A DNA stretch of 64,000 bases from NCBI GenBank assembly GCA_963745035.1, contig CAVUVW010000011.1:224001-288000 (forward strand). The letters are read 5' to 3'. The translations under genes and the position numbers were made by a program. Positions within the stretch are counted from its first letter, which is position 1. Each line of letters begins with the position of its first letter. This document shows positions 4,795 through 21,411 of this stretch, piece after piece. The notes beneath the pieces are model-generated. The model was given only the letters and a program-made list of their open reading frames with translations, was not told where the DNA came from and searched no databases. The stretch is from an uncultured delta proteobacterium (GTDB taxonomy: Bacteria > Desulfobacterota > Binatia > UBA9968).

Positions 4795-5298
4795 ATGGCT
4801 ACAGTAAAATTCAAGGATGCTACCTTGACGCTTTTGGGCAACGAAGTGAAGGCGGGTCAAGGCGCGCCCGACTTCAAGGTGCAGAAGAGCGCTGACATGA
4901 GTGACTACACTTTGGCGAGCGGGGCAGGCAAGACTCGCATCATCGCCACCGTGCCGTCGCTTGACACACCGGTCTGCGATCTGGAGGCAAAAAGGTTTAA
5001 CGAGGAAGCGAGCAAGCTGCCCAACGTCGAAGTCGTTGTCGTCAGCATGGATTTGCCGTTTGCGCAAAAGCGCTGGTGCGGTGCCGCCAATGCCGACAAA
5101 GTCATCACGGCAAGCGATCATCGCGAAGGTTCCTTCGGCAAGAATTACGGCCTGCTGATTTCCGGCGGTCCGCTCGATCGCGTGCTCGCGCGCGCGGTTT
5201 TCGTCGTCGGGCCGGACAACAAGCTCAAACACGTCGAATATGTCCCCACCATCGGCGAGCATCCCAATTACGACGCCGCCCTCGCCGCGGCGAAATAG
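4795..5298 (+). CDS. tpx: Thiol peroxidase (Tpx)
   Basis: VPSLDTPVC (peroxidatic Cys), SMDLPFAQKRWC (resolving Cys), LARAVFV, EHPNYDAA; RBS aggagg. Confidence 0.95.
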   Translation: MATVKFKDATLTLLGNEVKAGQGAPDFKVQKSADMSDYTLASGAGKTRIIATVPSLDTPVCDLEAKRFNEEASKLPNVEVVVVSMDLPFAQKRWCGAANADKVITASDHREGSFGKNYGLLISGGPLDRVLARAVFVVGPDNKLKHVEYVPTIGEHPNYDAALAAAK

Positions 5299-5310: not shown

Positions 5311-5352
5311 GGCAGCTCGAAGGCCGGTCTACGCCGCCGGTTTCGAGCTGCC
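5311..5352 (+). other. GC-rich hairpin after tpx (possible terminator or stabiliser)
   Basis: ggcagctcgaa...ttcgagctgcc stem with no immediate U-tract. Confidence 0.4.
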
Positions 5353-5374: not shown

Positions 5375-5402
5375 TTGAATTCCGGCGCTCAGCCTCTATA
5401 CT
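5375..5402 (+). promoter_or_regulatory. Candidate sigma70 promoter for the Sec-peroxiredoxin/glutaredoxin pair
   Basis: TTGAAT-16 bp-TATACT, 50 bp upstream of ATG 5453. Confidence 0.4.
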
Positions 5403-5452
5403 AAAATTGAGCGTTCATCCGAGCGCTTAATTTTTAGTGAGGAGAAATCATC

Positions 5453-5923
5453 ATGATTGAAGTCGGCAAGGAAGCGCCGGATTTCGAATTAGTCAGTCAT
5501 TTGGGCGGAACCAAGTTCACGTTGGGCCAGTTCAAGAACAAGAAAAACGTCATGCTGGTGTTCTATCCGCTGGATTGGACACCCACTTGAACCCGCGAGA
5601 TTCCGGCTCTGGAAGCTCTCAAGGAAGAGTTCAAAGCCTGTGACACCCAAGTTATGGGTGTGAGCATCGATAGCAGATTCTCTCACGATAATTGGGCGAA
5701 ATCGTGCGGCGGGATTTCTTTCCCCCTACTGCAGGATTTTCATCCCAAGGGGGAGATGGCGAAGAAATATGGCGTTTTTCTAGAGGATAAAGGGATTACG
5801 GACCGGGCGACGGTAATCATTGATAAGCAGGGAATCGTTCGCTACTCGAAATCGGTAACGCCCGCCGGTGAACGCAACCCCAAAGAGCTGTTGGCCGAGG
5901 CGCAAAAAATCAACAACGGATAA
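5453..5923 (+). CDS. Selenocysteine-containing peroxiredoxin (AhpC/TSA, AhpE-like), 156 aa, Sec46 encoded by in-frame TGA 5588-5590
   Basis: RBS gaggag + ATG 5453; MIEVGKEAPDFEL...VMLVFYPLDWTPT-TGA-TREIP continues in frame into ORF 5654-5923 (GVSIDS, RATVIIDKQGIVR). The TGA occupies the peroxidatic Cys position of PxxxTxxC. Confidence 0.9.
5597..5620 (+). promoter_or_regulatory. Putative bacterial SECIS hairpin
   Basis: GAGA-TTCCG-[GCTC]-TGGAA-GC-TCTC stem-loop; G-initiated apical loop starts about 16 nt after the UGA. Confidence 0.6.
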
Positions 5924-5924
5924 T

Positions 5925-6164
5925 ATGGCGCTGGAACTTTATTTCTACAACGAATGCGGTGTTTCGCAGACGGTGCTGAACTGCATGACGAATCTTCACT
6001 GCGAAGATCAAATCGTCAAGAAGGATATTCGGGAGAATCCCGAATATGAAAGCGAGCTCATCGCCCTGACCGGAGCCAAAACGGTGCCCGTGCTCGTGAT
6101 CGACGGCAAGCCGCTCAAGGGCTCCGAGGAGATCAACCAATTTCTAGTGGGAAAGTTCCTGTAG
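5925..6164 (+). CDS. Glutaredoxin-like protein (CxxS)
   Basis: MALELYFYNECGVS...TGAKTVPVLVIDGKPL (cis-Pro TVP motif); starts 1 nt after the Prx stop. Confidence 0.82.
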   Translation: MALELYFYNECGVSQTVLNCMTNLHCEDQIVKKDIRENPEYESELIALTGAKTVPVLVIDGKPLKGSEEINQFLVGKFL

Positions 6165-6185
6165 TCGTAAGTCCACGATTGGCAG

Positions 6186-6218
6186 AGGGGGCGAAACGTT
6201 TGTTTCGTCCCCTTTTTT
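6186..6218 (+). terminator. Rho-independent terminator
   Basis: agggggcgaaac-gttt-gtttcgtcccct followed by a T-run. Confidence 0.75.
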
Positions 6219-14948: not shown

Positions 14949-16298
14949 GTGATTCAATTGCATGTGCAGATGTATCCCTGCTACACCGATGATGTGGAGA
15001 CGGCAGCTCGGAGTGAACAGCGATTCAAGAATCCCGGTATTTTTTACGGCTGGTACATCGTCGGCGTCGGCTTTCTCGCCAATGTCGCTTCATCATTCGC
15101 GCTCGCCAGCACGCTCAGCATATTTCTCAAACCTTTGACCGCGGAGCTGGGCATCTCGCGCGGCGTGTTTTCTTTGTTGCGCTCGGGCGAGGGCATCATC
15201 GCGGCCTGCTTGGCGCCGCTGGTCGGGACACTGGTGGACCGCTACGGCGGGCGCTGGCTCATGGTGAGCGGGGCGGCGATCGCGGGCGTCGGTTTTTTGT
15301 TTCTTGGCTACATCGAGAATTTCGTTCAATTCACGGCGGTTCGCTTGACCTTGATAACGTTTGGCGACGTGTTGATGGGCTACATGGTCGTCAACGTGGT
15401 CGTCGCGCAATGGTTCGTGCGCATGCGCGGGCGCGCCTTTGCGTTCACGAGCATGGGCGTCGGTTTCGCCAAGGTGTGCATGCCGATCCTGGCGGCCTGG
15501 CTCCTGGTGTCGGTCGGCTGGCGACAGACCTGGATGGTGTTCGGCGTGCTCACGATGGCTTTGCTGGTGCTTGCCGGCGCTGCTCGTGGTGCGGCGCACG
15601 CCCGAGGATATGGGGCTTCGTCCCGACGGGGCCGCTGAGCCGATAACAGATACCGATCCGTTCGCGCGTGGCAAAAGAACCGGGCATGAGTTCTCGGCGC
15701 AACGATCCGGACACGCTCTGGACTCGCGCTGAAGCCGCGCGCACGAGCGCGTTCTGGTTGCTCGTCATCACGTTCGGTATTTCCAGCGTCGGCGTGACGG
15801 GGCTCAACCTGCACGTCTATCCCTACGTCACCGATATCGGTCATTCGCCGGTCGTAGCCGCCACCGTGATGAGCGTGATTGCGTCGATGCAGCTCGCTTC
15901 GCCGCTCGTCTGGGGATTGGTCGCCGAGCGCATCGACCCGCGCATCGCGGCCATGCTGCGCTTTGTCGTTCAAGGGCATCGGTCTCGCACTGGCAATCTC
16001 GACCAGCAGTCTGATTTGTCTCTATGCGGGATTTTTTCTCTACGGCATCGGCCTAGGCGGCAATATGGTCTTGCCCGATCTCCTGTGGGCCAACTATTTC
16101 GGCCGCCGCTCGCTCGGAAAAATTCGCGGCATGGGGTTGCTGATATCGCACTTCCTCGCTGCTTTGGGCCCGCCGTTTTTTGGTTTCTTGTTCGACATCA
16201 CCGGCGGCTATGGCCTCTCGTTCGCGATCTTCGGCGCGGCTTTGGCGACTTCGGCGGTGCTGAGCCTGATGCTGCGGCCGCCAAGGAAAACGGAATGA
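14949..16298 (+). CDS. MFS transporter; frameshifted
   Basis: IFYGWYIV, GTLVDRYGGR, QWFVRMRGRA, RRTPEDMGLRPDG, YFGRRSLG; start may be near 14994. Confidence 0.85.
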
Positions 16299-16303
16299 GG
16301 TGA

Positions 16304-16382
16304 TGGAGTGTTGGAGTAATGGAGTATTGGGGAATCCAATCCGGAACCAACACTCCACCACTCCAGTACTCCAACACTCCAA
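16304..16382. repeat. Octamer (TGGAGTRN) inverted-repeat hairpin element
   Basis: tggagtgttggagtaatggagtattgg versus ccaacactccaccactccagtactccaacactcca. Confidence 0.85.
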
Positions 16383-17618: not shown

Positions 17619-18878
17619 ATGTCGCCAGAAATTGTTAATCTGGACTTTGCCGATCTCACGCCCGACCAGCAGGTAGGCCGGCTCAAGGATCAATTCGTTT
17701 TATTGCGCGGCCAAGACGCCGTCGTGCGGGCGCGAGTCGGCGAGTTACCCGTGCGCCAGTATATCTCGATGTTGGAGCGCGGTTATCGAATCGGGCTGGA
17801 ACGAGACGGCGAAAGCTTCACGCTTGTCCTTCGGCCCGACGGCTCGACCCCGCGTTTGGGCCTTCGCGGCGCGCATTCAGTGGTGAGCCACGCTGACGGG
17901 CGCGTCTATACCAATACGAGTGACAATCGGATCGCGGTCATCGACGCCTCGACGCGACAGGTGCAAAGGCATATCTCATCCGGCGACGATCCGTCGCATT
18001 TGGAATTGTCTCATGACGGCAAACGGCTTTACGTCGCCAACAGCGGCTCCAACGACGTCACGATTATCGATACGACGACCGATCAAACGCTTGCGACGGT
18101 TTCAACGGGAAGGCGGCCGCTGCTTCCGTGCGTGGCTGCAAATGGCAAGTCGGTCTATTTGCCGAGCGGGCCGGACCGGAATGTGACCGTGCTCGGAAGC
18201 GACGGGGAATTTCGCGCAAAAGTTCCAGTCGGGCTCGCGCCGCACGACATCGCCGTTTCCCCTGATAGCCGTTGGGCCTATCAACCCAACTCCGGCTCAC
18301 ACACGGTAACAGTCATTGACGGTTTGAATTACTCCGTGGCCGGCGAGATCACAGTCGGTCTCGGACCCGGGCACATCGCCTTCGACCCGGAGAGCCGCTA
18401 CGCCTATGTGGCCAACACGGTTTCGAATGACGTGACGGTCGTCAGGACGAGCGATCATGAAGTCGTGGCGACGATTCCCGCCGGCAAAGGCGCGCATCTT
18501 CCCGCGCTCAGCCCGGACGGGCGCTACGGCTATGTCGCCAATTTTGCGTCCGACGATCTGACGGTATGGGATTGCGGCGATCATCGCGTTGTCGCCACGA
18601 TCCGTGTCGGGATTTATCCACACTTCTTCGCCATCAGTCCAGATGGAAAGTGGATAGTGGTGTCGAACACAGGTGAATCGAGCATCTGCCTGATTGACGC
18701 CCACGATCACGAAACACGAGCACGACTCCCAGTCGGCGCCGCCCCGGCGCATCTCGCTTTCACCTCAGATAGCGAGTTGGCTTTCGTCGGCTGCGAGAGC
18801 ACGGATGAAGTGGCCGCGATCGACCTGCGAACGCAAACCGTCGTCGAGTTGATCAAAGCAGGAGAGGTCGTTCCGTGA
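17619..18878 (+). CDS. YVTN/YncE beta-propeller protein with a short N-terminal extra domain
   Basis: Eight repeats of the form P-H..SPDG..YVAN..SNDVTVID. Confidence 0.88.
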   Translation: MSPEIVNLDFADLTPDQQVGRLKDQFVLLRGQDAVVRARVGELPVRQYISMLERGYRIGLERDGESFTLVLRPDGSTPRLGLRGAHSVVSHADGRVYTNTSDNRIAVIDASTRQVQRHISSGDDPSHLELSHDGKRLYVANSGSNDVTIIDTTTDQTLATVSTGRRPLLPCVAANGKSVYLPSGPDRNVTVLGSDGEFRAKVPVGLAPHDIAVSPDSRWAYQPNSGSHTVTVIDGLNYSVAGEITVGLGPGHIAFDPESRYAYVANTVSNDVTVVRTSDHEVVATIPAGKGAHLPALSPDGRYGYVANFASDDLTVWDCGDHRVVATIRVGIYPHFFAISPDGKWIVVSNTGESSICLIDAHDHETRARLPVGAAPAHLAFTSDSELAFVGCESTDEVAAIDLRTQTVVELIKAGEVVP

Positions 18879-19937: not shown

Positions 19938-21411
19938 ATGGCGCCGCCACAAGAATCATCATCATCACCCGGCCGCAGTCGCTGGTGGTCGCTGTCGGTT
20001 GCTTCGGTGGCGACTTTGATCGTCACCTTGGACACCGGACAATTGAGCATTGCTTTGCCTTTGATCATCCGGGAGTTCAACGCCGAGCTCGCGCTGGCGA
20101 GTTGGATGGCGCTCGTTTACGCTCTGATCACGGCGTCGCTTTACCTGCCTTGCGGAAGAATGTCCGACCTGTTCGGTCTGGGAAAGTTATTTCTCGGCGG
20201 ATTTATTTTGTACTCGCTGAGCTCATTCGCCGCGGGGGCCGCCCAAGGCGCGGGGCAGCTAATTTTTTGCCGCGCGCTTCAAGCCGCCGGCAGCGCGCTG
20301 ATCATGGCGAACAACTTTGCCTTGGTCACGGCGCTGTTTCCGCCGGAGGAGCGCGGCCGGGCGATGGGTATCGCCGGCGGCACGATTTCCGCGCTAGGAT
20401 ATTCGCTGGGCCCGGTGATTGGCGGCCTGCTTACTCATGCTTTCGGTTGGCGCTCCAATTTCTTTCTGTCCGGCACCCTGGCATTGGCGGGCTTTGCCGC
20501 GGCGCGCGCGCTGCTGCCGCCGGAGAGTTTTCGCGGCTCGAATCAAAGAAAGGAGCCGTTCGATTTTGTCGGCGCGCTCAGTTTCGCGTTAGCCATTTCG
20601 GCGCTTCTGACGGCCCTGGCTTTGGCGCAAAAAGGAGAGTGGCAGGATGCCTTAGTCGTGCAGCGTGGCTCTCGGCGGGGCCGGCGTGCTGGGATTTTTC
20701 ATCTGGTGGGAAAAACGCATCGACTACCCGCTGCTCGATCTCGCGATTTTTCGTATTCCCGCGTTCACCCTCGGCAACGCGGCGCGATGGTTGAGCTTCA
20801 TCACGATGAGCGTCAGCAACTTGCTGATGCCATTTGTTCTGCAGCTCGGCATGGGCCTCGATCCGCTGCGCACTGGGATTCTCGTGGCGCCGACGTCGGT
20901 GGCGATGGCGCTGCTGGCGCCGCTCACCGGCTGGATGTCGGAAAAATTCGCGCCCGAGCGTCTCTGCGCCGCCGGTCTCGCGGTGAATGGCGTAGCGCTG
21001 ATTTCTCTCAGTTTCCTTGCCCCCGATTCGAGCGCGATGGAAGTCGTCTTCGGATTGGGCCTGATGGGCGTAGGAATGGGAATTTTTCAAACTCCGAACA
21101 ATAATCTGCTCATGAGCTCGGTGCCGCGGCACCGGCTGGGCGTGGGATCGTCGGTGTTATCGATCGTGCGCAGCCTCGGTTACTCCATCGGCGCCACCCT
21201 GGCCACCATGATCGTCAGCTATTCTTTATTGAGCTCGACGGGAGCCGCGTCATTGCAGAGCCTCGCGGTCGGTTCAGGTGCCGGTTTCGATGGGCTCGTG
21301 CTTGCCGCGTTCCTGCGCGGGTACCGTTACGCATTTCTCACCGCCGCGGTCGTGGCATTCGCCGGCGCGCTGATCAGTCTCTGGCCGGCGCGCCGGGATG
21401 ATTTCAATTGA
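19938..21411 (+). CDS. MFS DHA2 (EmrB/QacA-like) transporter; frameshift near 20660
   Basis: LDTGQLSIALP, GRMSDLFG, FPPEERGRAMG, PFDFVG, PLLDL.IF, FQTPNN. Confidence 0.88.

Follow-up and report, generated by a model that had tools for sequence, protein, structure and literature searches.

The DNA analysed here, a 64,000-nucleotide stretch from an uncultured delta proteobacterium (hereafter the window), carries what is best explained as a gene for an AhpE-like peroxiredoxin (Prx) with a single selenocysteine (Sec), whose UGA codon would be decoded by way of a SECIS made up of two hairpins and whose product would be reduced by a glutaredoxin-like (Grx-like) protein. To this explanation as a whole, which is drawn from comparative sequence analysis, a probability of about 0.68 is given. 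That this is a genuine selenoprotein gene, of a type already known and encoding the Sec form of an AhpE-like peroxiredoxin, can be stated with great confidence. On a wider scale, the evidence leans towards a widespread family of Sec-peroxiredoxins with a two-hairpin SECIS, in which a spacer of about 35 nt, free of fixed sequence, would be looped out, and in which the arrangement could be swapped for a SECIS at about 20 nt. The features concerned are collected in the table.

Features of the selenoprotein locus, with window positions (RNA positions, where given, count the T of the TGA as +1)
Feature	Positions	Strand	Basis
Cys-type thiol peroxidase Tpx, upstream neighbour	4795..5298	+	NF001808, 195.5 bits, cutoff 123
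Sigma-70-like promoter candidate TTGAAT-16-TATACT	5375..5402	+	consensus match only, 9/12 positions
Shine-Dalgarno AGGAG, 8 nt upstream of ATG 5453	5440..5444	+	sequence
AhpE-like peroxiredoxin ORF, 156 aa if TGA46 is read through	5453..5923	+	PF00578, AhpE match, AlphaFold/Foldseek
In-frame TGA, codon 46, peroxidatic position (putative Sec46)	5588..5590	+	TGA in 79/80 related loci, GGA in 1
Proximal hairpin of the sequence-only reading, loop 15 nt past UGA, overlapping and competing with the spacer hairpin	5597..5620	+	folding; not conserved
Spacer hairpin, register and loop variable between relatives, stability conserved	5605..5638 (+18..+51)	+	z vs synonymous shuffles
Distal SECIS-like hairpin, 7-bp stem, 5-nt loop A-G-U-U-A 59 nt after UGA	5643..5661 (+56..+74)	+	covariation
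Glutaredoxin-like protein, 79 aa, CGVS (CxxS), 1 nt past the Prx stop	5925..6164	+	PF00462, 32.3 bits
Intrinsic-terminator-like hairpin closing the two-gene unit	6184..6215	+	14 pairs + T tract

The list of open reading frames gives only an 89-aa piece of the peroxiredoxin gene (5654-5923), as had been remarked in the sequence-only reading that this analysis followed up. The longer frame proposed there, together with its ribosome-binding site, was reconfirmed along with the AGGAG: from the ATG it reads MIEVGK...FYPLDWTPT-TGA-TREIP..., ending in a TAA at 5921-5923, and it contains a PxxxTxxU motif and the catalytic Arg118. In the region upstream, two sigma-70-like sites were found versus 0.8 expected. 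The TGA had also been described as a clean in-frame stop, unlike the broken genes of the window, and this holds, since the frameshifts with respect to relatives lie at about 15114-16316 and 19953-21408. The genes split there are intact in relatives and likely owe their state to assembly indels; their presence meant that a sequencing error at TGA46 had to be excluded. For comparison, GTDB was scanned with two peptide patterns, both far from the TGA and the hairpin, yielding at least 554 relatives among at least 599 matched stretches, and the best 80 of these at least 554 (50-92% identity) were retained. The 80 loci span Binatia, SAR324, Myxococcota, Planctomycetota, Acidobacteriota and others, the nearest relatives among them, which share neighbour genes, being Candidatus Binatia and related deltaproteobacterial MAGs. 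Two contigs of one MAG (L004 and L008) each hold a TGA copy, and the encoded proteins share 89% and 83% identity with that of the window.

The window protein scores 126 bits with Pfam PF00578 (AhpC-TSA); no NCBIfam model reached its cutoff, and no AhpE-specific model was among the NCBIfam/Pfam matches. It has the features of the AhpE subfamily, namely PxxxTxxC/U with the catalytic Arg, a length of about 150-160 aa and an AhpE-like fold. The best PDB relative is AhpE of M. tuberculosis (E 7.7e-26), with residue 46 opposite the peroxidatic Cys45, the catalytic position to which the TGA had been assigned from the sequence alone. In addition, an AlphaFold model with U modelled as C attained a pLDDT of 94, and the top 10 Foldseek matches to it were all AhpE chains (TM 0.86-0.92). 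The mycobacterial enzyme, a 1-Cys Prx (PDB 1xxu, 4x0x), is closest in both sequence and structure (35% identity, TM about 0.92, rmsd 1.4-1.5 A), is of equal length and shares the D-F-x-P-x-G segment, and the lack of a conserved resolving Cys may be a further likeness; it differs in having Cys45 where Sec would stand here, and the likely partner here is a CGFS-like Grx domain, either encoded alongside or fused. P39, T43 and R118 are invariant in 80/80 relatives. A second Cys occurs at C63 in 14/80, at C85 in 5/80 and at positions 77 and 150 in 36/80, no column being higher, and the window protein itself carries C63 and C85.

PrxU of Peptoclostridium (Eubacterium) acidaminophilum is an experimentally verified Sec-Prx. 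Its peroxidatic codon, too, is UGA, and the identity amounts to 36% over 159 columns, but the window protein falls outside its family NF040737 (91.9 bits vs a cutoff of 270, PrxU itself scoring 408). PrxU is AhpC/Prx1-like, has 240 aa and extends into a long C-terminal tail, and the distal hairpin is absent from its gene (-3.0 kcal/mol). With the Sec-containing bacterial peroxiredoxins termed TxxU, of which Table 3 of PMC5029168 counts 91 genes in 78 organisms and of which 43 COG1225 genes are given for the Sargasso Sea in PMC1088965, the window gene has in common PxxxTxxU, PF00578 and the pairing of UGA with Cys, a likeness of motif and domain; it differs from the published genes in its SECIS-like loop at 59 nt, outside the 16-37 nt model. 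In a more remote Prx gene, on a plasmid of Planococcus lenghuensis (NZ_CP019641.1, L092:577-1062; 34% identity), the peroxidatic codon is likewise TGA and the annotation runs across it, but the distal hairpin is missing.

The second loop base of the distal hairpin, G64 in the numbering of the table, is position 5651. When synonymous codons were shuffled in a sliding comparison, excess structure was found in segments that begin at +3/+15 and +39/+51, with mean z values of -1.0 to -1.5. Over 77 distinct sequences the distal hairpin has a mean pair probability of 0.72-0.79; its stem is paired in 93.6% of cases vs 87.8% when shuffled, with 46 both-side changes (0/500 shuffles) affecting 5/7 stem pairs, and controls slid along the sequence are 15-47% paired. 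This covariation extends to synonymous third positions, of which 65/76, 72/79, 67/70 and 67/79 pair vs 37, 33, 32 and 21 expected from the codon usage of the loci, in a test whose z values treat related loci as independent. Moreover, it links silent and non-silent sites: Asp GAC goes with Val G (37) and GAT with Ile A (27), and, in a second link, Thr A goes with Gly GGT (50) and Ala G with GGC (17). Loop positions 2-3 are G-U in 73/79 distinct sequences, which is the pattern of bSECIS loops according to the Fig. 2 legend of PMC13188914. The bSECIS model of that figure comprises a loop of 3-9 nt, a stem of 4-16 bp, G in the first two loop positions, an MFE <= -7.5 and a loop 16-37 nt away. A comparison with this model gave a divided outcome: the distal hairpin agrees in its 5-nt loop, its 7 bp, its G in second place and its -9.3 kcal/mol, and it departs in spacing, with the loop at 59 nt (that of the proximal hairpin lying at 15 nt), while an ungapped-stem scan of the window at 16-37 nt after the UGA found no hairpin passing the model.

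A search with a covariance model built on the distal hairpin recovered all 81 Prx genes and detected no second gene with the element; its two best outside matches (L024 and L026, E about 6e-4) fall in an upstream ORF that is unrelated and offers no suitable in-frame TGA, and were rejected. Gene-wide mutual information, calculated on unaligned in-register columns, ranked pair 57-73 at 24 of 42,778 and pair 58-72 at 2,114, and was not counted as evidence since it is dominated by indel and kinship noise. On the comparative evidence, the distal hairpin is likely to be a working SECIS, whose loop SelB would bind.

Natural controls are provided by loci in which the hairpin has been lost. In 10/80 TGA rows it has decayed, and 10/10 of these carry a canonical hairpin instead, whose loop (GGA or TGGAT) lies at 19-20 nt and whose energy is -9.6 to -14.2 kcal/mol; such a hairpin (<= -7.5 kcal/mol, 16-37 nt, G loop) is found in only 4/70 rows that keep the distal one. 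The ten switched loci all fall within one 22-member clade, so that the Fisher p of 6e-10 overstates the association. On a tree built without the trait's own codons, the best solution has 4 changes (bootstrap 3-5), with one independent pair on supported branches. Several independent distal-to-proximal switches are not demonstrated, a single origin having a p-AU of 0.39, and the exchange is to be counted as at least one event, not ten. As for the peptide, the hairpin-compatible [TA]QVx[GS] is present in 37/38 W forms and in 72/77 fragments covering it, and in 19/132 Cys homologues (4/11 at 50% identity or more). Cys-coding DNA controls were available as 8 distant plasmid genes (10 of 540 plasmid matches were sampled, 2 of which were TGA forms), and a distal-register fold of <= -6 kcal/mol is formed by 72/80 TGA rows vs 1/8 of these genes. 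Nevertheless, 3/8 of the controls can form 7/7 distal pairs when G-U wobbles are allowed, and one of the Cys controls (L084) forms a hairpin of -8.2 kcal/mol whose loop reads A-G-U. The main caveat is therefore that the beta-strand peptide predisposes to the distal hairpin, and may be its origin.

An alternative along these lines would have Sec inserted with the distal hairpin not being the SelB site: the pairing would reflect self-complementarity of the D-T-Q-V-x-G-V codons, or a role in pausing or mRNA stability, and each gene would use a loose hairpin of its own at 20-35 nt. The pairing of 3/8 Cys controls in that register agrees with it, as do a weak G-loop hairpin at 27-29 nt in many loci, whose 4-bp register covaries (58.9% vs 47.5%), and the retention of the distal hairpin at L043, where there is no TGA. 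It is made doubtful by the 21/70 distal-hairpin rows, the window included, in which the ungapped scan found no G-loop hairpin at 16-37 nt, and by the finding that the distal stem has decayed in just those loci that possess a strong canonical SECIS, together with the relaxation of the peptide in Cys homologues. Locus L043, from a Planctomycetota MAG, has GGA (Gly) at the catalytic codon (L043:10133-10135) and a perfect distal hairpin; either the codon has mutated recently, inactivating the enzyme, or it has been misassembled.

The distal hairpin as SelB site, which is the preferred reading, calls for a path shorter than 59 nt, and the spacer hairpin could provide it. Folding from +15 onward, and with about +16..+52 taken as the spacer region, the spacer attains a mean z of -2.16 in the 69 distinct rows with a distal hairpin (83% below -1), where the distal hairpin itself attains -2.89 (100% below -1); the respective values are -0.54 and -0.23 in the 10 switched loci, and -1.17 and -2.14 in the window. 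According to PMC4605307, the canonical SECIS has a 6-8 bp stem with a conserved G about 20 nt after the UGA, and SelB binds it near the mRNA entrance, a model there separating the loop from the A-site codon by about 57 A, or some 13 nt; in PMC4513850, the part of the SECIS near the UGA is described as unwinding into the tunnel. While UGA46 occupies the A site, roughly the next dozen bases would be covered by the ribosome, and the mRNA beyond would fold into the spacer hairpin and, directly after it, the 7-bp hairpin with the G-U loop. Were the spacer looped out, the path to the loop would be about 14 + 4 + 7 = 25 nt; as this is inside the canonical range of 16-37 nt, SelB could bind the loop at the mRNA entrance and, from there, deliver the Sec-tRNA to UGA46.

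In the sequence-only reading, the SECIS had been seen in a stem-loop right after the TGA. The stem-loop exists (5597-5620), but its assignment as a SECIS is probably wrong. Although the first 43 nt reach their lowest energy in this stem-loop (-10.2 kcal/mol), its stability is about that expected by chance (z 0.17, equalled by 107/200 shuffles), its loop falls 1 nt short of the 16-37 nt consensus, and over 76 sequences 48.8% of cells pair vs 48.1% when shuffled. RNAalifold found no common structure for +1..+54 across relatives, and Rfam gave no match in the window. As the SECIS of the family it was thus rejected, being unconserved and no better than shuffles. It might still insert Sec in the window alone, the distal hairpin being a by-product or an enhancer, and in favour of this it has a loop starting with G and only 1 nt off in spacing, keeps 7-8/9 of its pairs in the 4 nearest relatives (with no compensatory change) and dominates the window's free mRNA (P 0.95), where the distal stem has a P of 0.16. 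However, when +1..+11 are withheld, as by the ribosome, its P falls to 0.00, and the spacer and distal hairpins rise to 0.99 and 1.00; loci L002-L004 take the spacer and distal fold at every start tried, a hairpin of the 5597-5620 type having P 0.00 in all of them. Given also that its lower stem sits where the ribosome unwinds mRNA (PMC4513850), and that conservation and covariation are lacking in the 76 sequences, such a role is unlikely.

With regard to the amino acid inserted, TGA stands at codon 46 in 79/80 related loci with both gene flanks intact, and it aligns with the catalytic Cys of 132 Cys homologues among 269 proteins compared. The Cys/TGA pairing that an alignment of homologues had been expected to reveal is thus present, and the selenoprotein claim of the earlier reading, to which the three invariant residues also contribute, emerges strongly supported. 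Of 792 protein homologues, the top 120 comprise 75 that start after the site and 36 with W there, besides 6 with C, 1 with G and 2 with a deletion, the W presumably stemming from code-4 gene calling. The terminal stop codon of the relatives is TGA in 33, TAG in 27 and TAA in 20 (n=80), which indicates that UGA still terminates in these organisms; in the window, the ORF 17619-18878 terminates in TGA, and the related loci L001 and L003 stop there too. Since TxxU peroxiredoxins are listed as a verified selenoprotein family in the table of PMC13188914, Sec is the likely reading of UGA46 and, judged from the conserved TGA and the intact fold in the comparison, Sec rather than Cys is very probably what it would encode. 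The source genome would then possess the Sec machinery; as had been stated for selA, selB, selC and selD in the window, searches with E. coli SelA, SelB and SelD and with ARAGORN found no selA, selB, selD or tRNA-Sec there or in 1.24 Mb of flanks, whole genomes being outside the search, and no tRNA gene of any kind in the 64 kb.

Recoding of UGA46 as cysteine by the SECIS-dependent tRNA-ReC/SelC* would fit with the machinery not being seen in that span, and the system, which needs a downstream SECIS, is known (PMC13582414, citing Vargas-Rodriguez 2018). It is nonetheless very improbable, as tRNA-ReC is reported in about 2-17% of the Sec-type genome sets examined, alongside canonical tRNA-Sec (PMC13582414), the TxxU family is a verified one, and the trait is spread over several phyla. 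Frameshifted genes elsewhere in the window and the W output at the site might suggest a sequencing error, a nonsense pseudogene or a Trp/Gly codon under code 4/25, but the conservation of TGA in intact genes and the terminal use of TGA next to TAG and TAA exclude these readings for practical purposes. Furthermore, Trp at the peroxidatic site of a Prx would be inactive.

The base 3' of the UGA is A in 77/77 distinct sequences with TGA, and Ser at that place is always AGY, never TCN, which suggests selection on stop-codon context. Table 1 of PMC5029168 records two SAR324 single-cell genomes with an 'orphan SelD'; this SelD may not be orphan, as SAR324 genomes in the present set, different from those two, carry the UGA gene. 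When the window was scanned for redox motifs with TGA read as U, no further convincing selenoprotein appeared among the matches listed, and a screen of the flanks for other TGA/Cys genes, with 18,110 candidates dominated by shadow frames, was uninformative.

The distal hairpin fits the canonical bacterial SECIS in its 7-bp stem, its 5-nt loop with G then U and its energy, and differs from it in a loop at about 3 times the usual distance and in the separate spacer hairpin before it. The literature searched, mainly non-subscription text, yielded no account of a bacterial SECIS that is distal or consists of two hairpins, and an earlier one may exist; the layout is probably new. According to section 5 of PMC13188914, the SECIS consensus is not matched by some of the bacterial selenoprotein genes, and there must be distinct classes; in one test cited in PMC12013277 bSECISearch missed 13% of known genes. 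Sec-peroxiredoxins being already known, the protein alone amounts to a modest but broad correction of annotation (75/120 truncated, 36/120 with W). The RNA element matters more, as a candidate defined at base level for an atypical SECIS class missed by consensus searches, for which the compensatory variants and the natural revertants to the canonical type represent ready-made controls. If the reading is right, the distance between UGA and SECIS in bacteria would be set by folded geometry and not by nucleotide count, the strategy for searching bacterial SECIS elements would change, and the codon constraint due to SelB binding could be moved some 20 residues from Sec in recombinant selenoproteins.

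The 79-aa CxxS protein is likely, by analogy, the reductant partner of the Sec-Prx. Comparison of the loci reveals a Grx-like partner within about 1.5 kb at 37/81 of them (23 fused, 14 separate; CGFS in 24), none being found nearby at the other 44/81. AhpE of M. tuberculosis is recycled by the monothiol mycoredoxin-1 (PMC8113037), which makes an analogous role plausible here: Sec46, held by P39, T43 and R118, would reduce peroxides and would probably be recycled by the adjacent or fused CxxS domain through a monothiol route. The Prx5-Grx hybrid of Haemophilus (PDB 1NM3, PMC8113037) has a C-terminal Grx-like fusion, as in 23/80 relatives; it is, however, Cys-based and of the Prx5 subfamily, whereas the window has two separate genes and an AhpE-like protein with a putative Sec. 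A glutaredoxin-family gene also lies directly 3' of the Cys-type AhpE-like genes L084, L085 and L087 (Phenylobacterium and sphingomonad plasmids), and the Prx-Grx pairing thus extends beyond the Sec forms.

On the other side of the gene, a long GC-rich inverted repeat (5311-5352) between tpx and the promoter candidate of the Sec-prx is probably the end of the tpx transcript, which is probably separate from that of the Sec-prx. Tpx is possibly a selenium-independent back-up peroxidase, and it is likewise found upstream in the related loci L001, L006 and L008.
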